Virus record (IMG/VR): IMGVR_UViG_3300019458_000006 | Location: 1 to 64,000 of that record | From: a virus | Strand: one strand, 5' to 3' | Length of the DNA: 64,000 nucleotides | Notes under the pieces: generated by a model | The model's input: only the letters and a program-made list of their open reading frames with translations | Databases searched by the model: none | What the model was told of the DNA's origin: nothing | Shown: in pieces, positions 35,965-58,826 of the stretch | How positions within the stretch are numbered: the first letter of the stretch is position 1 | Layout of the letters: the number at the start of each line of letters is the position of its first letter | Program-made: the position numbers and the translations under genes

Positions 35965-38217
35965 TTAGGCGAAACTGAGTGATTGCTCTCCGGGTCCTAG
36001 GTGGACATACGGACCACCCGCCTCCCTGGCCTGCTTTTGCATCATCCGCATGGCGGCGTGATAGGCGGGACTGCCCCCAGCCCGCCGCTCGGCGGGGGCC
36101 ACGTAAGCGGTGCCATCCAGGAAGCGATGGGAGATGTACTCGCAGAGGTACTCCGTCGCTGCCATGCAATCATGAATCCGCTCGTTGACCGGCTCGTCGA
36201 TGGGCACCATATTACCCTCGTTGTCGGCCACTTCCTTCTTGCGGTAGGAGTAAAACTCCTTGATTGTGTAGTGGCATTTTGAGGATATCCACAGCTTCGG
36301 CCAGCCGTCCTCGACAGGCTCTAGGAACGCCCGGACCGTCCGCCGGCGCAGCTCCTTATCGTCGCAGCCCCGCATAAACCCGGCCTTCGTCAGCCGGGAG
36401 AGGATGCCCCGCTTGCGAAATTCTCGCTCATAGGACTCGAACACCGTCACATCGTTGCCGATGTTGGTTTGCCGGCCAGCCCGCTGGTCCATCACAAACG
36501 CCTCCAACGAGAGGCCTTCCGTCAGCGGCATTAAGGCGGCTGCGAACATCGCCGGAGTGTGCTTCTTGACGATCAGCTCTCGCTCGATGATAAGCCGGTC
36601 CCCCATGACCACCCGGTTCACTTCCGGCGGCGGGACCACCCCGAACAGGCAGGCTGTGCGAGTATGGCTAGGATCAATCACCAGGTAGCGGGTCCAGTCG
36701 TGCGGCAGCTGCGCGTCCCGGAGGCAGTTGCAGACAATCTGGTGGGCGGTTGCAGGCTCTGGCAGCGGCTCGTCGTACGGCTTGACGACGTGAATCGCCG
36801 AACCGAAGTCGTACATCCTCCGGCCGGAGACAAAGGCGGAGATGTCGCCCCGGTCACGATGGGCCTCGTCATCGTCACCATCCATGCGCAGCAAGCCTTC
36901 CTGAATACCCTGGCGGTCGGAGTAGGGGTTGTCCGAACCGGTAAGCTGAAAGACCTGAATCGGCGGCTTTTCGTCGTCCTGGTGGCGCTTGGCCCGCTCG
37001 ATGGTTTTGATGAGGGCTTCGTTGTGGATCTTGGGCCATACCGACCACAGGAACCAGCCCCGCACGCTCATCAAGCGGTCCTGCCACTCCTTTAAAAAGG
37101 CGGCATTGGCCGTGTCCTCGTCCAGCCAGATTCCGTGTACTGCATCGCCCTGCTTGGGATGGTCGCCGGTGGTGGGGTAGGCGCACATCGTCACGCCGTT
37201 AATGATCCGCACACTGTGGAAGATATTGCCGGCCGAGCTCTCCATGTGCCAGCTGTTGGGAACGATCAAGTGCTCACCAAATAAGGGCGGCGAGAGCACA
37301 CTTTCCTCGAACCTCTCCACGTCGAAATTGGGGTTATAGGCCCGCCATTTCTTGGTCTTATGGTCACGGAGGATGCGGAACTCGCACCCCAGTCCAGGTG
37401 AGAAGAGGCGGTGGTAGATCGTCTGGCCAATGTGTTTCACGTCCAGCCCAATGACCCAATACAGACCGTTGTTTCTTTTAGACGGAACACGGAACCGCTT
37501 CTTGATAGGCGTACCATCAGGGCGAATGATCGGAATGCCCAGTAAGCGGCTGGCGAATTCCATGACGACGGCTAGCGTGTTATGAGTGACGACAAAGTCC
37601 CTTGTAACATACGTATGATCGGGACATGACACGCTAATACACACGCAATCTGCCGCCCCGTCAGGCTTAATCGACCTTAGTATTTTGACGGCCTTCTCCT
37701 GGGCTGTTTTCCGCCAGTTCTCCCAGGCGGGGACCGCTGGTCGATCGCCTGGCAGCGGCTCGTCGCCCCACTCATCGATTATTTGCTGAGCGGAATACAC
37801 CTGCCACTGTCCGTCGCCGCGAAGCCTTTGACGGCCTGTCTGGATTAACCACAGATGCTCACCACAACATCTAGTCCACGAGCCATCGCTGAACGTAACG
37901 CGGAAAACATCCTTCATGCCCTGCGGGAACACTCCAGTTACGGTACACGGCTTACCGTCACCGCCAATAACAATATCACCTTGAGCCAGCTCACCTATCG
38001 GTCTCCACCCATTCGGTGTCAGGATCGGCTCGTCCTTGGGTTGCGCTTTCCCGCTGCGCTTTCCGCCCGTCACGATGTTTTCGCTGGCCTGAGACTCATG
38101 GATCGGCAGCTGCTGATCCGACGGCCGATAGACCCGGAGCGGGTGCTGCTCGCGTAGCTCCAGCTCGGCGATCCCCCTCTGGATCTCGGCCAGCTCGTAC
38201 TTCAGGCTGCCTGCCAT
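35965..38217 (-). CDS. terL: terminase large subunit, interrupted by an intein in the Walker A P-loop
   Basis: The exteins read VTGGKRSGK|T = Walker A GKRSGKT. Walker B-like GIWLDED is present, and the C-terminal half is nuclease-like. A 156-aa Hint domain is inserted. Confidence 0.8.
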   Translation of the reverse strand: MAGSLKYELAEIQRGIAELELREQHPLRVYRPSDQQLPIHESQASENIVTGGKRSGKAQPKDEPILTPNGWRPIGELAQGDIVIGGDGKPCTVTGVFPQGMKDVFRVTFSDGSWTRCCGEHLWLIQTGRQRLRGDGQWQVYSAQQIIDEWGDEPLPGDRPAVPAWENWRKTAQEKAVKILRSIKPDGAADCVCISVSCPDHTYVTRDFVVTHNTLAVVMEFASRLLGIPIIRPDGTPIKKRFRVPSKRNNGLYWVIGLDVKHIGQTIYHRLFSPGLGCEFRILRDHKTKKWRAYNPNFDVERFEESVLSPPLFGEHLIVPNSWHMESSAGNIFHSVRIINGVTMCAYPTTGDHPKQGDAVHGIWLDEDTANAAFLKEWQDRLMSVRGWFLWSVWPKIHNEALIKTIERAKRHQDDEKPPIQVFQLTGSDNPYSDRQGIQEGLLRMDGDDDEAHRDRGDISAFVSGRRMYDFGSAIHVVKPYDEPLPEPATAHQIVCNCLRDAQLPHDWTRYLVIDPSHTRTACLFGVVPPPEVNRVVMGDRLIIERELIVKKHTPAMFAAALMPLTEGLSLEAFVMDQRAGRQTNIGNDVTVFESYEREFRKRGILSRLTKAGFMRGCDDKELRRRTVRAFLEPVEDGWPKLWISSKCHYTIKEFYSYRKKEVADNEGNMVPIDEPVNERIHDCMAATEYLCEYISHRFLDGTAYVAPAERRAGGSPAYHAAMRMMQKQAREAGGPYVHLGPGEQSLSFA
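37579..38046 (-). mobile_element. mini-intein (156 aa) with class-3-like features
   Basis: It starts AQPKDEPILTPNGWRPIGEL (Ala1) and ends FVVTHN|T. Block B is CGEHLW (Trp two residues after His). Block F is DCVCISV (Cys). Thr precedes HN. I verified the junction codons on the sequence. Confidence 0.75.
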
Positions 38218-46662: not shown

Positions 46663-46670
46663 GGTAGCTG

Positions 46671-46702
46671 CCACTCACCTACCTACTCACTTACTCACTT
46701 AC
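46671..46702 (+). repeat. G-free octamer-repeat leader, locus 1
   Basis: CCACTCACCTACCTACTCACTTACTCACTTAC has no G over 32 nt. GAGG and the ATG (46713) follow directly. Confidence 0.85.
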
Positions 46703-46712
46703 GAGGCACGCC

Positions 46713-47351
46713 ATGCTCACTTATGCGTCTTTTAGCGGCGGAGAACTCACGCTGCTGCCAGCTCCCACCTCCCCTCGCTCTTTCTGGCGAGATATGCGGC
46801 GGAGGGAGGCGGAGTACCTGGAGTCGCGGCGGTGGCGCGACTCCATAGACCCAGACGAGCCACCCCGGCCCATGCCCCTCCGGCCAGACGGCCAGAGCGC
46901 CCGGAGGGAGGCGCTGACGCCATATATGCGACTCGAGGAGCGGCACCCGAATCACCGCGACTTCGGCGAGGAGGAGCTCGCCGAAGTCGCCGCGGCTAAT
47001 GAGCGCGACTGGCAGGCAGTGTGCGAATTTCTGAGAGGCAAACTACCCCTCCATTCGGGGATACACACCGTAGTAGACGAGCAGGGGCTGCCGTTCCCCA
47101 TGCATGTACGTATAGCCACCTCCGGGCTGCCGGTGGCGGAGACCACGAGACCGAGGTATGAGCCGCCAGCGCCGCTAAACAGGCCCTGCTCGTATATGTG
47201 CCACTCACCAGAGGCGGTGCACTGTATGCCCGGCGTCTGCCGGGCCACACCAGAGGCCGCGCGGCGGTACGTGCCTGGCACCAAAGTGCTCCTGGAGTTC
47301 GCCTGCCGCTACGCCGCGGAGACTCTCCGCGAGCTCGGATTTGAGGCATGA
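46713..47351 (+). CDS. hypothetical protein
   Basis: 212-aa ORF with a GAGG Shine-Dalgarno 6 nt upstream. Confidence 0.6.
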   Translation: MLTYASFSGGELTLLPAPTSPRSFWRDMRRREAEYLESRRWRDSIDPDEPPRPMPLRPDGQSARREALTPYMRLEERHPNHRDFGEEELAEVAAANERDWQAVCEFLRGKLPLHSGIHTVVDEQGLPFPMHVRIATSGLPVAETTRPRYEPPAPLNRPCSYMCHSPEAVHCMPGVCRATPEAARRYVPGTKVLLEFACRYAAETLRELGFEA

Positions 47352-48168: not shown

Positions 48169-48187
48169 TAGCCGGCCCGCCGAGTGG

Positions 48188-48231
48188 AATCACCCACCTA
48201 CTCACCTACTCACCTACTCACTTACTCACCC
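48188..48231 (+). repeat. G-free octamer-repeat tract, locus 2
   Basis: AATCACCCACCTACTCACCTACTCACCTACTCACTTACTCACCC has no G over 44 nt. Confidence 0.85.
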
Positions 48232-48382
48232 GCACGGCCCCCAAGGAACACTTACTGGACCAAGGAAAACCTTGGCTCTTGGAAGCGGATAGCAGCCCAT
48301 AATTCAGACTGGTATTGATGCTAGGGGGCTGTTTTTGTAAACAGATTGTCAGGAAGTTAGCCGCTGCTTTAAGGAACATCTA

Positions 48383-48903: not shown

Positions 48904-48960
48904 TATCGTCGCTGCTGCGACGTTTTTACTACTTCCAGGTGGCTTGATATAGCAAACCAG
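48901..48960 (+). repeat. post-stop-codon intergenic element, copy 3 (diverged), containing a terminator and a putative promoter
   Basis: TAA-TATCGTCGCTGCTGCGACGTTTTTACTACTTCCAGGTGGCTTGATATAGC. It shares ATCGTCGC..CG-T5-ACT..CTTC..GGTGG with copies 1 and 2. Confidence 0.6.
48907..48927 (+). terminator. intrinsic terminator
   Basis: CGTCGC-TGCT-GCGACG followed by TTTTT. Confidence 0.7.
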
Positions 48961-48964
48961 CCGC

Positions 48965-49025
48965 ACCCACTCACTTACTCACTTACTCACTTACTCACTT
49001 ACTCACTTACTCACTCACCACATTG
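48965..49025 (+). repeat. G-free octamer-repeat leader, locus 3 (CACTTACT x5 plus partial copies)
   Basis: CACCCACTCACTTACTCACTTACTCACTTACTCACTTACTCACTTACTCACTCACCACATT has no G over 61 nt. A putative promoter, TTTACT-N17-TATAGC, lies at 48925-48953. Confidence 0.9.
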
Positions 49026-49060
49026 TCCCTTGATTTCTGTTTTCTGGAGGGATTCGTCAC

Positions 49061-49327
49061 ATGCTAGCTTTATCGTTCGTGGACGCCATCCGCCAGGATG
49101 GCTATCGTCTCCTGCGCGTCTCGAGAACCAACCGGCGATACGCCGGCGAGCACGCCGTGCTCGCTATGGACCGGGACTACATCGTCACCTACGTCTTTGT
49201 GCCTCACGGCGGGTGCTATGGGGCGTGCTGCCACCGGCAGAAAATAATCCGGTCCACCGGTCGGGCCGAGGCACGGGTGGAGTTTCTACGAAGGTTTCCC
49301 CTAGCCGATGTGATTCGAGTGGACTGA
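49061..49327 (+). CDS. hypothetical protein carrying palindromic element copy B
   Basis: 88 aa with a GGAGGG Shine-Dalgarno 9 nt upstream. It contains ..YAGEHAVLAMDRDY.. encoded by 49136-49160. Confidence 0.55.
   Translation: MLALSFVDAIRQDGYRLLRVSRTNRRYAGEHAVLAMDRDYIVTYVFVPHGGCYGACCHRQKIIRSTGRAEARVEFLRRFPLADVIRVD
49136..49160 (+). repeat. palindromic element copy B, inside a CDS and in frame
   Basis: GCGAGCACGCCGTGCTCGCTATGGA. Confidence 0.9.
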
Positions 49328-49770: not shown

Positions 49771-49904
49771 CGACAGAGATCAAACCAACCCCAACGACAT
49801 GAATGGGGATGATTGGGCTGAGTTTTATCACGAACTCGGCCCGGACTACGAGGATTACATGGACCACGACCACTCAATGGACGCTTAACATAAGGAGAAA
49901 CCTA

Positions 49905-50408
49905 ATGCAGAGTTTCAGACTGGGAATTGGACATCACCCACAAGGACCGTCGGGAGGGGTGGGCTGCGTCAACGAGATCGCCTCGGTGCTGGCCGGCGAG
50001 AAGTGGAGCGATAACGCTTCCTGCGTCGATCAGTTCTGCCGGGAGATGGCAATTGCCTACAACGACTCGTTTGACGACGACGACGAACTGAACGCCGATG
50101 AGTATACCCAGGGATTGCCTTGGAGGCTGGTCGGCACGGCCAGCGAGAAGCAGGGGAAGGCGCGTCGGAAAATGCTGGCTGAATTCTACGAGTCCTACAG
50201 CGACGACTATAGTCCAGAGACCCACTGCGATATCCTCTCTAGCGAGAGGATTGGTTCATTAGCCGGAAGACTTATCGTTACCGCGACGACTCGTCCAGAC
50301 GCCAGGCGGTGCCTGGAAGAGATGCTGGCCCTCACCGAGATCAAGGAACCGGCCTGTCAGGACGTATGCCTGGTGGGGGCCGCCGGAAACGAAGGACCGA
50401 ACATCTGA
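49905..50408 (+). CDS. hypothetical acidic protein, first gene of the Ubl-cassette neighbourhood
   Basis: I prefer the start MQSFRLGIG at 49905, which has an AAGGAG upstream. Confidence 0.55.
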   Translation: MQSFRLGIGHHPQGPSGGVGCVNEIASVLAGEKWSDNASCVDQFCREMAIAYNDSFDDDDELNADEYTQGLPWRLVGTASEKQGKARRKMLAEFYESYSDDYSPETHCDILSSERIGSLAGRLIVTATTRPDARRCLEEMLALTEIKEPACQDVCLVGAAGNEGPNI

Positions 50409-50445
50409 CAAATGTCACGCCCGCATTTTCGTCACACTGCTTAAA

Positions 50446-50478
50446 GCGAGCACCCTGTGCTTGCTAGCGCTGGCTGGC
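50446..50478 (-). repeat. palindromic element copy E (intergenic, reverse orientation, diverged)
   Basis: The plus strand reads GCGAGCAC-CCT-GTGCTTGC-TAGCGCTGGCTGGC. The reverse complement begins GCCAGCCAGCGCT, identical to the 13-nt flank of copy C. Confidence 0.7.
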
Positions 50479-50527
50479 TTGCTTAGGCAGGAAACTTACG
50501 TTTCGTCACTTTTTTAGGAGGATTAGT

Positions 50528-50752
50528 ATGCGCGTCACGATTCGGTATGGGACCGGCAACGAAACAACCACGGAGTTTCCAGATGGAACCACGCTGAGCG
50601 ATGTCATTGGTAACCCCAATGTGCGCGGTCTCTTGGGCTACGGCCAGAATGTCGTCGGCCACATCGGCGGCATTCCTCAGCAGGACTCCCTGACTCTGTT
50701 TAATGGGGTTGTGGTGGAGATCCACGACAAGCAGAGCCAAAAGGGGTCATAG
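50528..50752 (+). CDS. ubiquitin-like beta-grasp protein (ThiS/MoaD/Prok_Ub-like)
   Basis: 74 aa: MRVTIRYGTGNETTTEFPDGTTLSDVIGNP...LTLFNGVVVEIHDKQSQKGS. The length and hydrophobic pattern are ThiS-like. A strong AGGAGG Shine-Dalgarno is present. The C-terminus is KGS rather than GG. Confidence 0.55.
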   Translation: MRVTIRYGTGNETTTEFPDGTTLSDVIGNPNVRGLLGYGQNVVGHIGGIPQQDSLTLFNGVVVEIHDKQSQKGS

Positions 50753-50852
50753 AAAGAGGACGGATCGCGAATAGGGGCGACCTGGGGGCGGGGCCAAGAC
50801 TGCCCCTGGGTTGGCCTCTACTCCCGATTCCTCGTCAGTAAAAGGAGAGGGT

Positions 50853-51131
50853 ATGCCGTATGTAAGAATTGTCTACGTCCCCATCGATAGCAGCCACCGT
50901 TATTGCGGGCTCGAGGGAGCCATTGTCCGCGTGAACTACCTTCCGGCAAGCGGAATAGAAGTCGTCTATGCGGCGGACAGACTCCCGTGCCGGCCCGGAT
51001 GCGAATCCGACCATCCCCAGTCGGTGGGTGCTTTCTGTGAAGAAGTCCCAGCACATCTAGTACAGCCTGGGGGTCCAGGCACGCACGAACTCGGACCAAT
51101 CTTTATCCCGCCAATCACTAACCCTAACTAG
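50853..51131 (+). CDS. hypothetical protein in the Ubl cassette
   Basis: I prefer the start MPYVRIVYVP at 50853, which has an AAGGAGAG upstream. Confidence 0.5.
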   Translation: MPYVRIVYVPIDSSHRYCGLEGAIVRVNYLPASGIEVVYAADRLPCRPGCESDHPQSVGAFCEEVPAHLVQPGGPGTHELGPIFIPPITNPN

Positions 51132-51140
51132 GAGAATGTT

Positions 51141-51902
51141 ATGGCAATGAAAAATTGCATCGTCATCGACGAGGATGGAGTGGCCCAAAAAGTCACAGTC
51201 AAAACCTTCGAAGCCGGGGAGATACAAAACGCCCTCTACAGGGTCTCACAGAGCGGGTTCCACAGGATCGATTCGGTGTTTATGGTGGACGGCCAGCCCG
51301 TGACTATGGCACTCAACAACAACGGAGTGACTCTGGCGGCGGTCCAACTCCGGCAACTGCCGATCACCACCAACTACATGCTGAATGATAGTGTGCTGAA
51401 CCCTTGCTGGGCGACACTGACAGACGGTGTGCGCATGACTTGCATCTTCGTACCACCAGACAACATGAAGCTATGGCTGACCGTGGAACTCGTGAGCATA
51501 GAGAAGCGGACCACGATCCGTGAACTCGTGAGCATAGAGAAGCGGACCACGATCCGTAACGTGTTGATCTATGCCCAGGCGGCTGGGCAGACCGGCTACT
51601 TCCGGCTCCCGCTCCCTAATATTCACACCGATAGCCGGCTGTGCCCGAACCGGGAGCATGAAGAATGGGCGAACCACCTCACCGGAGAAAATGCAAACAA
51701 CATCGAGCTGTTGCTCAAAAAAGCCATCCGTCACGTCGTTGAGAGCGTCTGGAATAAGGACCTGGCTCCAGCCAACTCAGCGACCAGGCAAATATTCAGT
51801 TTCGATCCCCAGACACTCACCAACCAGACCATCCCCAGCGAGTGGTGGACGAGCTGCCAGCGCGTCTCGCGGCTAGAAATGGAGGTTCTCCATGCTAACT
51901 AA
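51141..51902 (+). CDS. E2-like (UBC-fold) candidate with a 12-aa tandem duplication
   Basis: FRLPLPNIHTDSRLCPNREHEEW resembles the E2 HPN-x(5-8)-C active-site flap. It overlaps the next ORF by 11 nt. Confidence 0.4.
   Translation: MAMKNCIVIDEDGVAQKVTVKTFEAGEIQNALYRVSQSGFHRIDSVFMVDGQPVTMALNNNGVTLAAVQLRQLPITTNYMLNDSVLNPCWATLTDGVRMTCIFVPPDNMKLWLTVELVSIEKRTTIRELVSIEKRTTIRNVLIYAQAAGQTGYFRLPLPNIHTDSRLCPNREHEEWANHLTGENANNIELLLKKAIRHVVESVWNKDLAPANSATRQIFSFDPQTLTNQTIPSEWWTSCQRVSRLEMEVLHAN
51486..51557 (+). repeat. perfect 36-bp tandem duplication (2 copies), in frame
   Basis: GAACTCGTGAGCATAGAGAAGCGGACCACGATCCGT x2 encodes ELVSIEKRTTIR twice. Confidence 0.95.
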
Positions 51903-52266
51903 CCCACAAATCGATCAGCGAGTGAGTTCCCTCCTCCATCCGGATCAGCAGGGGATGATTGTTGAAATTATAGATGACTCGATTGGCGTCAGGTTTGATG
52001 CACCAAGCGAACCAGAGCCGGCTGCCGAGGAGAACCTCTATCGGCAGCTGCTGGTCGATTTTTCCGTCAGGTCTGGAGATCCAGACGAAATCCAGGGTAT
52101 GGACTTACCTCTGTTTGTCCACTGGCTGTTCAAACGTAGCAGTGAATTCCCGCAACAGGTCCAGGAAATTAAGGACACCGTCATAAGCGCCCGGGGGCAA
52201 GTTATCGACCTGCTGCGATCTGAGATCGCACGTAGACTTATTCAGGAGATGTGCAATGAAACATAA
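51892..52266 (+). CDS. hypothetical protein in the Ubl cassette
   Basis: 124-aa ORF whose start and stop overlap the neighbouring genes. Confidence 0.55.
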   Translation: MLTNPQIDQRVSSLLHPDQQGMIVEIIDDSIGVRFDAPSEPEPAAEENLYRQLLVDFSVRSGDPDEIQGMDLPLFVHWLFKRSSEFPQQVQEIKDTVISARGQVIDLLRSEIARRLIQEMCNET

Positions 52267-52975
52267 AGTCATCGGAGGTGGTGGGATAGGCAGTCGGGTG
52301 GTGGAGCAACTAGTTCGCCTCGTTGATCCTGCCACCGTCACCGTCATCGACGGGGATACGCTGGAAACCAAGAACCTGGACCGCCAGCTATTTAACCAGT
52401 CCGCTGTTGGCCGCAACAAAGCCGAGGCCTTGGCGGAGAAGTACGGCACCGGGTTTATTCCGGAGTATTACTCCTGCGGAGCATTCAATGGAATGGATAA
52501 CACCACGCTCCTCTGGTGCTGTGCGGACAACAACACTTGCCGGCGGGAGGTGCTCGATGAATGCGACTTAAATCGCTGCTGGGCGATTCTCGCGGGCAAC
52601 GAGTACACCGACGCTGAGGCCATGCTCTACGAGCGGGGACTGCGGAACGGGCCGCACGACCCCAGGACGATCTATCCAGCCATCCTCACGGATCACCAAA
52701 ACGACCCTCTGGGGCCACCCGGCTGCGTAGAGCTGTCAGAGGACAGCCCCCAACTGGTCCTGGCAAATGTCTGGGCGGCCAGCTTTGCTTTGCATCTGTA
52801 TTGGTTTCACTTCCGCGAACATCAGGCCGTGGACAAGAGAGCCAGCCAGCGCTGCACTGGCGAGCACGCCGTGCTCGCTATGGAGAAAGCCTACTGGCCC
52901 ATCCATCACAAAGTGAACTTCCTCCAGTTTTCCACAATCCGGAGGCTCCACCGCCAGGAGGTGATAAATGCCTAG
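52256..52975 (+). CDS. ThiF/E1-like adenylyltransferase
   Basis: VIGGGGIGSRVVEQL (GxGxxG), IDGDTLETKNLDRQLF, GRNKAEAL, CADNNTCR. It carries palindromic element copy C near the C-terminus. Confidence 0.8.
   Translation: MKHKVIGGGGIGSRVVEQLVRLVDPATVTVIDGDTLETKNLDRQLFNQSAVGRNKAEALAEKYGTGFIPEYYSCGAFNGMDNTTLLWCCADNNTCRREVLDECDLNRCWAILAGNEYTDAEAMLYERGLRNGPHDPRTIYPAILTDHQNDPLGPPGCVELSEDSPQLVLANVWAASFALHLYWFHFREHQAVDKRASQRCTGEHAVLAMEKAYWPIHHKVNFLQFSTIRRLHRQEVINA
52841..52884 (+). repeat. palindromic element copy C, inside a CDS and in frame
   Basis: GCCAGCCAGCGCTGCACTG-GCGAGCACGCCGTGCTCGCTATGGA. Confidence 0.9.
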
Positions 52976-53573
52976 TGTCGGTTTTTCACAACCAACCGGA
53001 GTAAAACCTATGACGGCCACGATTGGCAGCGTCCTGAAACGAGACTTGGGAGACACTATTTATGGGCTGCTGTGCCAGCCCAGCCCCCCGGACAACATCC
53101 GGGGCTTGGTGCTTCGGAAAACCGGGATCCCGATTCCAGAAAAAGAGAACCCCAGGTCCTGGCTGGAGGCTAACTACGAGACGGCCAAAGCGGCCCGGCC
53201 GGCACCCGCGGTAGCCAAACAAACGCCTCTCTATTACACAGTCTCCGGCGGCTACCACCGCCGGGAATATGGAAGCTGCGACTATGCCAACGACGCCAGC
53301 TACGCTGGGGAGCTGCGCGTCCCTGAAAGAGTGATCCGGGAGATCGTGGAGGAAAATGAAGGCGACTTAGATAACATGGTCGAGTACCTGAAGCAGTACG
53401 TCCGGGATAATGAGTCATTTGAAAACAACGGAGACGACTACTCCTACAACAACTATGAGCAAATCGGCTCAGACAGCAGGGAGGATGAGGAGTACAACGC
53501 CGCGGAGGTTCTAGACGCCTTCCTTGCCGAGCACGGCAACGAGTTTGATGCGGAGGGGAACCGTATCGAGTAG
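52968..53573 (+). CDS. hypothetical protein with acidic C-terminus, in the Ubl cassette
   Basis: 201-aa ORF overlapping the E1 stop by 8 nt. Confidence 0.55.
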   Translation: MPSVGFSQPTGVKPMTATIGSVLKRDLGDTIYGLLCQPSPPDNIRGLVLRKTGIPIPEKENPRSWLEANYETAKAARPAPAVAKQTPLYYTVSGGYHRREYGSCDYANDASYAGELRVPERVIREIVEENEGDLDNMVEYLKQYVRDNESFENNGDDYSYNNYEQIGSDSREDEEYNAAEVLDAFLAEHGNEFDAEGNRIE

Positions 53574-53720
53574 GAGGATGGCGAATAGGAACAGCCACCG
53601 CAAATTGCGTTCTAGCTTGACGCGGCGCGGTCAGTCGTTCCAGGCTTTCCTGGCTTTGCGTCTGGGGCGACTCTCCCTGCTTCGTTGTTCACCACACCTA
53701 CACTCTGATTGGAGTCTCAA

Positions 53721-54746
53721 ATGTTTATTAAGTCCGAGGACAAGATTTATGAGATCATTAAGGCGGGCAGCTGGTCAGGACTGGCCGAGAGAAATATGGA
53801 AGAGATCCAGAACCCGGTCAATCTCTGGAGCGGGCCTAAGCGGACGCTGGCCCAGCACCAGCAGGTACTGGCTTTCTTTGAGTGGAGCTACCAGACACAC
53901 AAAAACGAGGCTCAGGTCAACTGGTTCCTGAACGACACGGAGGGACGCTGGGAGCCGCTGGTGCTTCCCCAGCAGGGCCGCGGGCTGCACGTTAGCCTGT
54001 TGCAGGATCACCCGAACTACATCCCCACCTTCCAGCGGCTAGGGACCGGCTGGTCGCCGCAAGGGACCGACCATCACCATTGTTCTGCCCCAGCCTTTCA
54101 GTCGGGCACTGATTTTGGCGACGAAAAGACCAAGGAGGGGTTACATATCACAATCGGCGGGATAGGGAGCGATAAGTACAGCATCCACGCCCGTTCCAGC
54201 TTCCGACACACCATCCGCCCGGTGAGGCTGTCTCAGTGGTATGAGCTGCCGGAGTGGGCCGTGAGCCTGCCCCTGAACCTGCAGGACACGATCCTGGAAC
54301 ATCTCCTCACCACCCCAGCCAAGGACGCGGCCTTCCCGGAGTGGTGGAAAGAGAACGTGATTCCCTTTCGCCAGGTCGCGGTCACGCACACGCCGCTATA
54401 CAGAGCGTCCTACTCGCTGCCAACGACAACGCGGTATCCGGCGAAGGAGGACCGGCTGGCGGCGGCGCTCAAGGAGATCGCCGAGGAGCGGCACTGGACG
54501 CTGAAGGAATTTCGCGAGTGGGTGAACGCCATGCTGGAATGCAAGGCCACCTGCGACTTGTTCCGGGCCCTGGACAGCACATTTTGCGACCTCCGGGAGG
54601 CCGCGGACGTGCTGGAGGACATGATCGCTGAGGGGGTTGGTCTGGAATATAATCGCGACGAGGGCGACCTAGAGTTGGCCGCCTTGGAAGAGACGTGGGC
54701 GACTGGCGGAGAGTTGGCCCAGGGGCTAACCCAGGAAAGCCGCTAG
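53721..54746 (+). CDS. JAB/MPN+ (JAMM) metallopeptidase domain protein
   Basis: GTDHHHCSAPAFQSGTD fits HxH-x7-S-xx-D exactly, with an upstream Glu (THKNEAQV). The ATG at 53721 has a GGAG upstream. Confidence 0.7.
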   Translation: MFIKSEDKIYEIIKAGSWSGLAERNMEEIQNPVNLWSGPKRTLAQHQQVLAFFEWSYQTHKNEAQVNWFLNDTEGRWEPLVLPQQGRGLHVSLLQDHPNYIPTFQRLGTGWSPQGTDHHHCSAPAFQSGTDFGDEKTKEGLHITIGGIGSDKYSIHARSSFRHTIRPVRLSQWYELPEWAVSLPLNLQDTILEHLLTTPAKDAAFPEWWKENVIPFRQVAVTHTPLYRASYSLPTTTRYPAKEDRLAAALKEIAEERHWTLKEFREWVNAMLECKATCDLFRALDSTFCDLREAADVLEDMIAEGVGLEYNRDEGDLELAALEETWATGGELAQGLTQESR

Positions 54747-54814
54747 CATACCCTCGACCACCCGCCCTGAGGGAAACCTTAGGGCGGAGACTCCTGGGAT
54801 TGTCGGTACAGCTA

Positions 54815-54843
54815 TTGACTGCCAGGAAATCGGTGACTACAGT
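54815..54843 (+). promoter_or_regulatory. sigma70-like promoter (TTGACT-N17-TACAGT)
   Basis: Same architecture as 46634-46662. It is followed by GTAGCGAGCACGC, a half copy of the palindromic element. Confidence 0.5.
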
Positions 54844-54916
54844 AGCGAGCACGCACCGCACAGGCGGCTTGCTTGGGCCACCATTCGTCACACCCTTTCT
54901 CACTAAGGAGGCTCCC

Positions 54917-55363
54917 TTGCCTACCGCTGCTCAGAAGAAACGCCTACACGACACGCGGGAGTATTTCCGCGAGAAGCTGCTCACGGTTGTGAATGATGTC
55001 GAGGAGGCCTGGCCGACGCTCCAGACCCGTTTCGGGATCAATCGCAGCCAATGGTCCCCGCTGAAACGTCAGCTCGGTGAAATACTGGCCGCCGCCAGGA
55101 AACACAATGGCAAGGTGGTAGCTAGTGATCCAGAGGACACGCCTCCTCTATTTAGCGAGCCGGAGGAAATCGTCATCCCCGCGGATATGCCTGTGGCTGC
55201 TAAGTCCGCCTTTAATGTTTTACTGGCCAGAAATGGGCAGCTAGCTAATGAAGTGCGGGCCAGGGATGTGGAGATCGCCGCCATGCGTGGCGTGATCGCC
55301 AGCAACACCAAGCGGATCAACACGCTCCGGGGTGCCCTTAAGGACGTGATCGACGCAATATAA
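54917..55363 (+). CDS. hypothetical coiled-coil protein (TTG start)
   Basis: A TAAGGAGG Shine-Dalgarno lies 6 nt before the TTG at 54917. The track's longer ORF would overlap the JAB gene and run across a promoter. Confidence 0.5.
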   Translation: MPTAAQKKRLHDTREYFREKLLTVVNDVEEAWPTLQTRFGINRSQWSPLKRQLGEILAAARKHNGKVVASDPEDTPPLFSEPEEIVIPADMPVAAKSAFNVLLARNGQLANEVRARDVEIAAMRGVIASNTKRINTLRGALKDVIDAI

Positions 55364-55434
55364 GCCAGCCTGGCGAGCTGTGCTCGCGCTAGCCAGCTGG
55401 CGCAGCGCCGGCGAGCACTCCACGCTCGCGCTAG
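55364..55434 (+). repeat. two tandem diverged copies (D1, D2) of the palindromic element, intergenic
   Basis: GCCAGCCTGGCGAGC-TGT-GCTCGCGCTAG and CCAGCTGGCGCAGCGCCGGCGAGCACTCCACGCTCGCGCTAG. Confidence 0.75.
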
Positions 55435-55453
55435 AAAGGGGCTTGTAGGTGCT

Positions 55454-55526
55454 GTGGTAGTAGCTCAAACGATTAGAGCGCTAGATGGTGAATCTAGAGG
55501 TGCGGATTCAACTTCCGCCTGCCACC
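55454..55526 (+). tRNA. tRNA-like gene (cloverleaf folds by hand; anticodon position reads GUG/His) with several non-canonical positions
   Basis: Hand fold: acceptor GTGGTAG/CTGCCAC (7 bp, one G-U), D stem GCTC/GAGC, anticodon stem CTAGA/TCTAG with loop TGGTGAA, variable loop AGGT, T stem GCGGA/TCCGC with loop TTCAACT, discriminator C. Deviations: G rather than U at position 33, A at 19, and A53-U61. Confidence 0.45.
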
Positions 55527-55611
55527 CTTGTGAACGAGGCCGGCTATACCGGGATGAATCCAGCCGTTGTTCGTTTTTTCGTCACATCGTCACCGCTAGG
55601 AGTATTTCTCA

Positions 55612-57138: not shown

Positions 57139-57312
57139 ATGGGTACTGCCATTGCCGAGCCGCGTCACAGCGCGGCCCCTAAAATCGAGATGCCCGACGA
57201 GGAGGTCTATGACATCTCCAGCCTGGGAGGCGGAATCGTCCTCAAGCACCGAGAGACCATCGAACTAAAGGTGGAGAAGGCGGCTGATTTTCTAAACCAC
57301 TCAGAGTTTTGA
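57139..57312 (+). CDS. 57-aa hypothetical protein, possibly a detached N-terminal part of the ParB-like gene
   Basis: Own translation: MGTAIAEPRHSAAPKIEMPDEEVYDISSLGGGIVLKHRETIELKVEKAADFLNHSEF. Confidence 0.35.
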   Translation: MGTAIAEPRHSAAPKIEMPDEEVYDISSLGGGIVLKHRETIELKVEKAADFLNHSEF

Positions 57313-57374
57313 ATTAATGACGTTAAGGTGGATCGGCCTGTGGCCGAACATCCGTCATCCATCTCGCCCGCGAA

Positions 57375-58826
57375 ATGCTCTCTGGCAACTTCCGCTGGGA
57401 GCAGGTCAATCTGGCCGTGGCTCATGTCAACGGCCAAATCTATCGCATGAACGGGCAGCACACCTGCTTTCCGGCAGGGACAAAAATACGCCTGGCCGAC
57501 GGGACGCTTAAGCCAATTGAGCACGTCACGCTCATGGACAACGTCCTTACTGCCGAGGGGCGGTGCCGTGGTGTAAGGCAGGTCCATTCAATGCCGCACG
57601 TCGGGCACCTCTGCCGAGTGCGGCTCTGGGGTCACGCGCACCTCCGCTGCACCCCCAATCACGAGATTCTTACCAGGCGTGGATACGTCTCGGCAGATTC
57701 ATTAACATCTGATGACCATGTGAAAGTGCCGCGATATGCCCCGCAGTGGGCGTCTGTCATCACGACAGCCGAGCACGTAAGCGGATCGTCCGCAGCAAGC
57801 CGGGCCAAAAGCACAACCTTTCCAGCCTCTAGCTTTTCACACGGCGGCCGGGTGAATCACAAGCCGGTCCCGGATGCAATTAAACTTGACAATGACTTTG
57901 GGCGACTGATTTGGCTTGCGCCATCCATACACCAAGAACTCACTAAGAACAGGCCAGTCTGGAAGGTGACGGTGGCCGTAGCGACGCTAGGAACTAGGCA
58001 CCAGGGCCTCCCGGAGGTGGATTCCGACTCCACCTGGCGCAGGGTGCGGGCAATCGATAAAGAGAAATTTGCCGGCCTAGTGTACGACCTTGGCGTGGAC
58101 GAAGATCACTCGTACGTCGCTGAAGGGATTGGCGTGCATAACTGCTGGGCGCGTATCCAGGCCGATGAGGAGGGCCTCAGCAAAAAGACCCGCTGCCCAG
58201 TCCAGATGCTCCAGTACCAATGCAAGACCGTGGAGGACGCCCGGCAGCTGTACGCCTCCCTGGATCGTGGCCGGGGCCGCGGATCGGGGCTGGTAGTCAC
58301 CTCTCTGCTGCTAGGCACCAAGGAATTTGCGGGATATACCGGCCCGCAGCTGAAGATGATGAGTGCTGGGTACGGTCTCTGGCGGTGGGATGAGGCGCAC
58401 GCACGCAAATGGCACAATGCCGATGAGCGAGCGGATATGATGAAGACCGAACATCACAAGCTAACCCTCATCGTGGGGTCGATCATCAGGGAGTCAAGGC
58501 AGCGGGACTTCAGGCACCTGAAGCGGGCGGCCGGGATTGCGGCCATGTTTGAAACCTGCAACAAGGCCCCGGCTATTGCTCGCGAGTTTTGGCTGGTGGT
58601 GCGGGACGGAATCGGCGTAACCAACAAGACCGATCCTCGCTACGCCCTGCGGGAGTACCTCAAGAACACGGCCCAGTGCAGTAGCGAAGCGGCTGGCAGC
58701 AACCTCCGCGTGGCCACCGTTGAGGACATCTACCGGGCCTGTATTCAAATGTGGAATGCCTTTCGGGCCGACAAGGAAGTTAGGCTGATCCGCATCGCCG
58801 AAGGCAACCGTCCACTAGCGCGCTAA
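57375..58826 (+). CDS. ParB/DndB(DGQHR)-like protein interrupted by an intein
   Basis: The extein junction reads ..YRMNGQHT|CWARIQ.., so the intein sits right after a DGQHR/DGxHR-like motif. Confidence 0.5.
   Translation: MLSGNFRWEQVNLAVAHVNGQIYRMNGQHTCFPAGTKIRLADGTLKPIEHVTLMDNVLTAEGRCRGVRQVHSMPHVGHLCRVRLWGHAHLRCTPNHEILTRRGYVSADSLTSDDHVKVPRYAPQWASVITTAEHVSGSSAASRAKSTTFPASSFSHGGRVNHKPVPDAIKLDNDFGRLIWLAPSIHQELTKNRPVWKVTVAVATLGTRHQGLPEVDSDSTWRRVRAIDKEKFAGLVYDLGVDEDHSYVAEGIGVHNCWARIQADEEGLSKKTRCPVQMLQYQCKTVEDARQLYASLDRGRGRGSGLVVTSLLLGTKEFAGYTGPQLKMMSAGYGLWRWDEAHARKWHNADERADMMKTEHHKLTLIVGSIIRESRQRDFRHLKRAAGIAAMFETCNKAPAIAREFWLVVRDGIGVTNKTDPRYALREYLKNTAQCSSEAAGSNLRVATVEDIYRACIQMWNAFRADKEVRLIRIAEGNRPLAR
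57465..58142 (+). mobile_element. intein (226 aa, Cys1 ... VHN|C), no intact homing-endonuclease domain
   Basis: CFPAGTKIRLADGTLKPIEHV (block A), TPNHEILT (block B), LVYDLGVDEDHSYVAEGIGVHN|C (blocks F and G). I verified the junction codons. The segment LDNDFGRLIWLAP may be a LAGLIDADG remnant. Confidence 0.8.

Follow-up and report, generated by a model that had tools for sequence, protein, structure and literature searches.

A phage-borne cassette predicted to attach and remove a ubiquitin-like protein, with distant relatives among the PRTRC genes of plasmids

Described relatives of the phage cassette

Three bacterial pathways of modification by ubiquitin-like proteins (Ubls) have been characterised, type II CBASS (an anti-phage signalling system based on cyclic oligonucleotides), Bil and Bub; all three are encoded by the host, and two of them, CBASS and Bil, act against viruses (PMC11601603). 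Operons combining E1, E2, JAB and Ubl components were predicted in 2006 (PMC1779556). The stretch of DNA analysed here, referred to as the window, is 64,000 nucleotides (nt) long and covers positions 1 to 64,000 of the IMG/VR virus record IMGVR_UViG_3300019458_000006. It carries a cassette in which, in contrast to the host-encoded characterised pathways, the whole Ubl tool-kit is phage-encoded: a Ubl, an E2-like protein, a ThiF/E1-like adenylyltransferase and a JAB/JAMM metallopeptidase. A sequence-only reading of the window had described nine open reading frames (ORFs) at 49.9-55.4 kb, all on the plus strand, as a complete conjugation cassette, and these ORFs, with their overlaps and the quoted motifs (LPNIHTDSRLCPN, GGGGIGS, DGDTLETKNLDRQ and HHHCSAPAFQSGTD), are all present where that reading had placed them.

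The same reading likened the cassette to PRTRC (ParB-related, ThiF-related cassette; NCBIfam TIGR03734-03742, e.g. Hydrogenophaga pBPS33-1), a system for which the literature searched contained no functional study. The comparison stands for three components, since the phage E1, E2-like protein and JAB are homologous to PRTRC ThiF, B and A, respectively; the likeness to PRTRC_B and PRTRC_A has E-values of ~2e-4 with the active-site motifs aligned, and both cassettes belong to mobile elements. It does not extend to the remainder of the cassette. PRTRC has the gene order ParB-E-C-F-B-A-ThiF, whereas the phage cassette has Ubl-E2-x-E1-(x)-JAB, and PRTRC is found on plasmids and integrative and conjugative elements (ICEs), whereas the cassette lies in phage genomes and scores far below the curated PRTRC cut-offs. 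PRTRC_C has 138 amino acids (aa), while the phage Ubl is a bare beta-grasp of 74 aa, and the NCBIfam models found no counterpart of PRTRC C, E, F or ParB among the window ORFs. Judged from the sequences, the phage cassette is remotely related to PRTRC ThiF, B and A; by the curated tests it falls outside the family, but the homology is real.

A related module is present in a cultured phage, the jumbo Bacillus phage vB_BauM_KLEB27-3, where gp196-gp195-gp194 are homologues of the E2-like protein, the JAB and ThiF. The ThiF homologue has a hidden Markov model (HMM) score of 2e-40 and a possible Ubl lies upstream (1e-6); the module is likewise uncharacterised. It differs from the window cassette in its PRTRC-type order (E2-JAB-E1), in having ~27% identity, and in belonging to a 217-kb myovirus with a different neighbourhood. 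Apart from this module, the deposited phages and plasmids contained at the protein level distant ThiF genes only, and a DNA-level search of the deposited phages gave a tRNA as the sole match. The literature searched contained no description of the phage cassette.

Bil I/II has the same four parts as separate genes (BilA Ubl, BilB E2, BilC JAB, BilD E1), and in its chemistry the Ubl is joined to lysine and the JAB deconjugates (PMC11601603). Unlike the phage cassette, Bil is host-encoded and anti-phage, and the phage Ubl ends in Lys-Ala/Gly. No PADLOC or Pfam match ties the cassette E2, JAB or Ubl to Bil-type families; the relatives of the E2-like protein match Prok-E2_D and PRTRC_B and not any other Prok-E2 family, in which they also differ from Bil. 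Type II CBASS shares E1, E2 and JAB activities and is a mobile/conflict system, but there Cap2 is an E2-E1 fusion, Cap3 is the JAB and the role of the ‘Ubl’ is taken by the C-terminus of the CD-NTase (cGAS/DncV-like nucleotidyltransferase); no CD-NTase or effector was called near the cassette. Bub I/II has E1, E2 and Ubl parts, joined in type I by a JAB, and BubCD is among the profile matches of the E1 (1.4e-8), but Bub is built from fused Ubl-E2 and JAB-E1 proteins together with a DUF6527 serine protease (PMC11601603), neither of which occurs in the phage cassette. The relation to Bil- and CBASS-type systems that the sequence-only reading had raised is borne out in PADLOC for one generic Rossmann stretch, E1 residues 5-62, which matches the Cap2 E1-E2 models at 1e-11, but for nothing else: PADLOC gave no match for the Ubl, the E2-like protein or the JAB.

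The pairs ThiS/ThiF and MoaD/MoeB resemble the cassette in having a minimal E1-type domain and a small beta-grasp partner. These pairs have no E2 or JAB, their carrier ends in Gly-Gly and their genes lie in cofactor operons, whereas the phage cassette includes a JAMM peptidase and an E2-like protein whose Cys is conserved, and no biosynthetic genes.

The four core proteins and their conservation

The genes of the core are as follows.

50528-50752, plus strand: Ubl, 74 aa, ending in QKGS
51141-51902, plus strand: E2-like protein, 253 aa, with the motif LPN-x7-C (Asn160 at 51618-51620, Cys168 at 51642-51644)
52256-52975, plus strand: ThiF/E1-like adenylyltransferase, 239 aa (Cys157 at 52724-52726)
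53721-54746, plus strand: JAB/JAMM metallopeptidase, 341 aa (Glu63 at 53907-53909, His-to-Asp motif at 54072-54113)

For the JAB, a TTG start at 53709 would give 345 aa; gene callers take the ATG at 53721, which gives 341 aa.

The four genes are conserved in the fixed order Ubl, E2-like, E1, JAB. A scan of IMG/VR with the window ThiF protein alone gave no match and an alignment-based ThiF scan was needed, which recovered 52 distinct viral loci with the cassette from many environments; it is also present in several metagenome contigs and in 10 contigs of metagenome-assembled genomes (MAGs). Iterated HMMs started from the window proteins were run against 58 loci, including three copies of the window's own contig, and found ThiF in all 58, the 253-aa and the 341-aa proteins in 56 each, the 74-aa protein in 45 and a 187-aa protein in 22. 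The common order is Ubl, E2-like protein, small ORF, ThiF, optional 187-aa family and JAB, with three distant loci as the exceptions, and the same layout is seen in the neighbourhoods of the ThiF relatives in metagenomes (122 proteins, 38-55% identity). Since the same four genes recur in the same order in IMG/VR, metagenome and MAG loci, and the motif residues are invariant, the cassette is far beyond what chance would produce. The sequence-only reading had counted nine genes as one cassette; what stands of this is the four-gene core, or five genes in one subgroup, while the 167-, 92-, 124- and 148-aa ORFs are not conserved.

The phage character of the window is indicated by a major head protein (phrog_9953, 1.9e-21) and a helicase (phrog_16, 1.1e-52), and an identical contig was recovered in independent ENA, JGI and Logan assemblies. 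Ten loci were found in GTDB genomes (L061-L070), eight of them in Verrucomicrobiota MAGs (Limisphaerales, subdivision 3, Opitutus), which hints at the host of the subgroup nearest to the window phage.

The ThiF/E1 assignment is well borne out. In a direct family scan of the window proteins, the 239-aa protein was the only one to receive a family call, as it passed the Pfam ThiF cut-off (E-value 1.5e-11; 44.4 bits against 28.1). Its best NCBIfam match is PRTRC_ThiF (TIGR03736; E-value 4.7e-13, residues 4-190), which alone spans most of the protein, but with 49 bits it does not reach the family cut-off of 144.75. Alignment by hhalign to the ThiF of the Hydrogenophaga plasmid PRTRC gave 98.8% (E-value 4.5e-17, 191 columns), and the Cys is among the aligned residues. 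Among 49 sequences of the family, the Gly-rich loop (residues 7-13), D32, D34, N40, R43, Q44, K55, D91 and N92 are invariant or near-invariant and C157 is the single invariant Cys, presumably in the crossover loop known from E1 structures. By its residues, the protein keeps an intact adenylation site together with a candidate catalytic Cys. Its PDB profile search placed UBA3 (7e-13), UBA2 and UBA5 on top, at ~1e-12, and the UBA3 alignment spans the adenylation motifs; MccB (1.5e-11), TcdA, BubCD (1.4e-8), ThiF (1.5e-8) and Cap2 came lower. The sequence-only reading had asked whether profile searches would assign the ThiF gene to cofactor sulfur transfer, and the outcome is that the conjugating E1s score above ThiF.

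The JAB is equally clear in its active site, which contains the complete pattern E...H-x-H-x7-S-x2-D and in which E63, Q84, H118, H120, S128 and D131 are invariant among the 34 sequences of the family. As had been proposed from the motif, the protein belongs with the JAB/JAMM peptidases: 21 of these 34 relatives match Pfam Prok-JAB (PF14464; best E-value 7.9e-6). The hhalign comparison with the ‘PRTRC_A domain’ protein of vB_BauM_KLEB27-3 gave 97.8% (E-value 7e-13) and that with plasmid PRTRC_A an E-value of 1.7e-4 which includes the JAMM motif; the family HMM scores 8e-4 against PRTRC_A and the window protein itself has no NCBIfam match. Weak PDB profile matches to RPN11 and AMSH align on the motif, and the C-terminal half of the protein is variable. 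A RadC-type, nucleic-acid-related reading of this protein was ruled out, the relatives matching Prok-JAB and not RadC.

The beta-grasp fold suggested earlier for the 74-aa protein is well supported by its AlphaFold2 (AF2) model, built from a 63-sequence alignment, which has a predicted local distance difference test (pLDDT) value of 92.4 with the last four residues disordered. In a Foldseek search against the PDB, the top 50 matches were ubiquitin, NEDD8, SUMO, ISG15, FUBI or MoaD, all with probability 1.0, template-modelling (TM) scores of 0.57-0.72 and root-mean-square deviations of 2.1-3.9 Å. As modelled, the protein would have the small beta-grasp fold and the accessible C-terminal tail of the Ubl in prokaryotic conjugation systems as described by Iyer et al. 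2006. A profile search found 266 homologues or clusters, and in the 45 loci with a homologue the gene lies each time directly upstream of the E2-like gene. A few of the relatives have weak ThiS, MoaD or SAMP2 matches. Weak matches of the C-terminus to lipoyl domains were judged a coincidence of motif because of the confident ubiquitin fold.

The C-terminus of the Ubl family shows a pattern of its own. Lys72 (50741-50743) is invariant and is followed in the window protein by Gly73 and Ser74. A Lys-Ala motif is found near the C-terminus in 119 of the 120 best relatives, of which 88 stop exactly after it and 31 continue for 1-8 further residues. Two proteins of 148 aa (P0241 and P0242) are natural head-to-tail di-Ubl fusions, in which a second beta-grasp directly follows ...TKA, as in a polyubiquitin precursor; in these, cleavage after Lys-Ala would be needed. 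A conserved end, short extensions and tandem fusions are together what would be expected if a peptidase exposes the C-terminus of the modifier. The trimming of the terminal Ser proposed by the sequence-only reading fits this family, and the sequence pattern supports processing of the Ubl C-terminus by the JAB, with ...Lys-Gly as the predicted mature end once Ser74 is removed.

For the E2-like protein, a word-indexed search with the 253-aa sequence found the protein itself only and a full phmmer search was needed, which gave 120 cluster representatives. P88, N160 and C168 are invariant among 62 sequences, with the consensus FRLPLPNxYxDGRxCLG, and the family thereby has the potential catalytic Cys about 8 residues after (H)PN. 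More than half of the 62 relatives (36; best E-value 2.4e-5) match Pfam Prok-E2_D and 13 match PRTRC_B (TIGR03737; best E-value 5e-4), to which the window protein itself has no match. The N...C motif is aligned both with plasmid PRTRC_B (hhalign E-value 2.4e-4; 5e-5 with the family HMM) and with gp196 of the Bacillus phage (E-value 1.9e-5). These alignments indicate a remote homologue of PRTRC_B, not an equivalog. A weak hhalign match to human UBE2D2 (E-value 0.007, with the UBE2D2 sequence entered by hand) places HPN-x7-C on LPN-x7-C, with N160/C168 on N77/C85 and also with the flanking strands and helix matched. The AF2 model (pLDDT 93.4; predicted TM score 0.84) has the order helix (25-37), long beta-meander, LPN loop, Cys168 and helices, which is compatible with a ubiquitin-conjugating (UBC) fold; the strands in its sheet are roughly double the usual count. 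A search of BFVD with this model returned uncharacterised proteins of uncultured phages only.

Two large proteins, P0145 (1225 aa) and P0197 (1940 aa), contain 7-16 repeated stretches that match residues ~22-93 of the E2-like protein, and the N-terminal part of the latter may be a separate, reusable domain.

Proposed activity and its rivals

Based on the homology of the E1, the E2-like protein and the JAB, the predicted Ubl fold, the conservation of catalytic residues and the gene order, from which we infer the chemistry and the targets, we hold with moderate confidence that the cassette is a phage-encoded system for Ubl attachment and removal, a distant relative of PRTRC ThiF, B and A, with a role in the phage's own programme. 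As far as can be told from sequence, it is a real, phage-borne variant of the predicted system and is probably active. Active conjugation and deconjugation is the simplest reading because the catalytic residues are kept in a deep family, the end of the Ubl looks processed and the genes are co-oriented and overlapping. The overlaps amount to 11 nt (51892/51902), 11 nt (52256/52266) and 8 nt (52968/52975), and a simple consensus scan of the plus strand detected no strong terminator within the cassette.

The mechanism that we propose is modelled on Bil chemistry. The cassette would be expressed with the rightward (early/replication) gene block. The JAB/JAMM protein would remove Ser74 of the Ubl and expose the carboxylate of ...Lys72-Gly73, which the minimal E1, with ATP·Mg bound through the Gly loop, Arg43, Lys55 and Asp91, would adenylate. 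The Ubl would then pass as a thioester to the invariant loop Cys157 of the E1 and be handed on to Cys168 of the E2-like protein, where Asn160 of LPN-x7-C would aid aminolysis by a target lysine. The JAB may also be able to reverse the modification. The best candidates for target-selecting subunits or substrates would be the protein encoded in the slot between the E2 and E1 genes and the 187-aa family protein, and the role may be to modify phage or host proteins, possibly including host defence proteins.

Several observations weigh against this account. The Ubl does not have the C-terminal Gly or Gly-Gly of a typical modifier, the family ending in Lys-Ala and the window protein in Lys-Gly-Ser, and to our knowledge no characterised Ubl pathway has a Lys-Gly or Lys-Ala end. 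Nor is the Ubl traceable to PRTRC_C, as none of 63 relatives matches TIGR03738 and hhalign to plasmid PRTRC_C gave an E-value of 0.12 and a probability of 0.5%; by eye, the two share the ...K-G motif only. For the E2-like protein, Foldseek of the model against the PDB gave no significant match and no UBC protein (best E-value 0.067), the UEV domain of TSG101 appearing at rank 41 with an E-value of 0.5, and the PDB sequence-profile search with the family gave no match. Finally, neither Pfam nor NCBIfam matches the window's own E2-like, JAB or Ubl protein, and these are supported only through relatives, with E-values of 1e-4 to 1e-6. Since the motif alignments are positive while Foldseek and the PDB profile search are negative, we take the catalytic motif of the E2-like protein as established and its UBC fold as not confirmed by Foldseek against the PDB. 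The E2-like assignment made from the sequence alone is in this way upheld for the invariant Asn and Cys and for the Prok-E2_D and PRTRC_B matches, but not for the fold.

If the cassette is active, phages too would use Ubl tagging, and a Ubl with an end other than Gly-Gly would be defined, which would leave a single-residue remnant after trypsin, so that its targets should be directly discoverable. Activity would, moreover, hint at what the homologous PRTRC cassettes do, and if the tagging reading is true, the phage system would through this homology provide the first experimental handle on plasmid PRTRC. It is tempting to go further and to see in these loci a large, overlooked phage family of Ubl systems with a fast-evolving specificity subunit, which tag host or phage proteins during infection, e.g. 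to put host defences out of action or to regulate replication, as a viral mirror image of Bil, CBASS and Bub; this we regard as a tentative possibility.

On a different view, the cassette would serve a temperate phage for defence or superinfection exclusion and, in a Bil-like manner, tag the proteins of competing phages instead of helping its own carrier to replicate. Related chemistry does serve defence in Bil and type II CBASS (PMC11601603), PRTRC is carried by plasmids and ICEs, the window encodes a Resolvase-family serine recombinase, and some relatives are on MAG contigs (125 kb and 239 kb) in which prophages could be present. Set against this, PADLOC matched neither the Ubl nor the E2-like protein nor the JAB, the Cap2 match being confined to the ~60-residue Rossmann part of the E1. 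Moreover, the replication blocks of many different phages, including those on ~40-43 kb contigs with DNA polymerase A, have the cassette at one fixed place and in one orientation, next to genes of phage replication and recombination (ERF, YqaJ, Prim-Pol, DNA polymerase A, helicase), whereas defence cargo is typically placed in a variable, moron-like way. As many phages have the cassette as a syntenic fixture in their early/replication block, a part in the phage's own infection programme is favoured over a moron defence island, and we consider a defence role unlikely.

Still less probable, in our view, is that no protein is conjugated at all and that the cassette carries out sulfur transfer (as with ThiS, MoaD or TtuB) or a peptide or nucleotide modification of MccB type, with the JAB acting in processing only. 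The E1 is of the minimal MoeB/ThiF size and its profile also matches MccB, TcdA and ThiF, the weak ThiS, MoaD and SAMP2 matches of a few Ubl relatives point the same way, and sulfur carriers associated with a JAB exist. But the cassettes always include an E2-like protein whose Asn and Cys are invariant, conjugating E1s outscore ThiF, and there is no rhodanese domain and no gene for cofactor biosynthesis, thiolation or peptide export nearby. The Ubl end, Lys-Ala or Lys-Gly, is also not the Gly-Gly typical of thiocarboxylate carriers.

The E2-like gene contains a perfect 36-nt in-frame tandem duplication (51486-51557), by which the 12 aa ELVSIEKRTTIR are repeated in a variable surface beta-hairpin, and the E1 carries an in-frame insertion of 14 aa (ASQRCTGEHAVLAM), which comes from one copy of a 60-nt repeat (at 52833-52892) and is present in none of 48 homologues. 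That the cassette of this phage is decaying or inactive, so that the annotation reflects ancestry only, would draw on these two changes, neither of which is found in any homologue, but we give this very little credence, as both are in frame and in variable regions, AF2 models the E2 hairpin with high confidence, the catalytic residues are intact, the core ORFs are full length and the JGI and ENA assemblies, which are independent, have identical protein sequences. The E2-like gene is also where two Logan assemblies of this phage break.

Variable partners, neighbouring genes and repeats

The remaining features of the region are these.

49905-50408, plus strand: 167-aa ORF upstream of the cassette; the ORF opens at 49803
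50853-51131, plus strand: 92-aa ORF that lies after the Ubl gene and before the E2 gene; 106 aa if started from the TTG at 50811
51892-52266, plus strand: 124-aa ORF in the slot between the E2 and E1 genes, with an 11-nt overlap with each neighbour
53010-53573, plus strand: 187-aa protein with acidic C-terminus; 201 aa if the start is at 52968
54917-55363, plus strand: 148-aa ORF, inside a 222-aa GTG ORF
55454-55527: tRNA-His, downstream of the 148-aa ORF and of a copy of the 60-nt repeat

In nearly every related locus (L004-L058, L061-L070), the slot between the E2 and E1 genes is filled by a closely packed ORF, in most cases ~90-150 aa long. A single family for these ORFs was rejected, as there is no similarity between the subgroups, which fall into clusters of 27, 3 and 3 loci and 15 singletons. 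Such a hypervariable protein suggests rapidly evolving target recognition, and the slot protein may be a fast-evolving specificity factor. For the window's own slot ORF (124 aa), as for the 167- and 92-aa ORFs, no homologue could be detected in related loci.

The fifth gene, which the sequence-only reading gave as a 201-aa ORF (52968-53573), is started by independent gene calls on the same contig at the equivalent of 53010, giving 187 aa. Its family, wherever present in the 58 loci, always lies between ThiF and JAB, and it is found in further MAG loci too. The window protein is the minimal member of this family and belongs to one subgroup of the cassette. No significant match was obtained in a PDB profile search with the family or in searches of the window protein against Pfam, NCBIfam and PHROG, and the protein is a candidate adaptor or substrate.

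The 92-aa ORF has no Pfam, NCBIfam or PHROG match and, by the comparison of loci, is lineage-specific and outside the conserved cassette. The 167-aa ORF has a weak match (1.4e-5) to phrog_13065, a family without assigned function, and the homologues of the 148-aa ORF are copies of the same phage contig only. Both adjoin the cassette, and nothing supports either as a component of it.

In one group of loci with a conserved slot ORF of ~113 aa and contigs of ~40-43 kb (L022-L055), a VRR-NUC-like ORF and DNA polymerase A come after the JAB gene, as do proteins similar to gp33 and gp34 of cyanophage Pam3.

The gene 2 kb downstream of the cassette that had been read as ParB/DGQHR-like could not be confirmed as such. 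This 483-aa gene (57375-58826), which carries an NGQH motif, has no support as ParB from Pfam or the PDB, even with a 13-member profile, and its family lies near the cassette in one of 13 loci; a true ParB_N gene follows the cassette in one related locus only (L004). The gene contains a 226-aa mini-intein directly after the invariant YR.NGQH motif, with a T|C splice junction, and in an intein-free homologue (L014/L075) the corresponding NGQHTCW is uninterrupted. A 57-aa ORF (57139-57312) together with the sequence past its TGA (window 57139-57374) resembles, in another frame, the N-terminus of the intein-free homologue, and the 483-aa gene may be split by a stop codon and a frameshift, or recoded. 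The window's terminase-type PHROG matches also come from an intein-bearing ORF (749 aa, 35965-38217, minus strand), whose intein matches the gp41-1/DnaB mini-inteins at 5e-9. The phage therefore has at least two inteins, in the 749-aa ORF and in the 483-aa gene.

The 60-nt repeat is present in three copies, at 49119-49178, 52833-52892 and 55384-55443, which are 70-75% identical to the reference copy. Its core is a hairpin, GCGAGCAC-GCC-GTGCTCGC, and the third copy lies just 5' of the tRNA-His. In the rightward early region there are also arrays of an 8-nt unit (TACTCACY / CACCTACT) at 46668-46714, 48175-48245 and 48952-49030, which could be iterons or regulator-binding sites.

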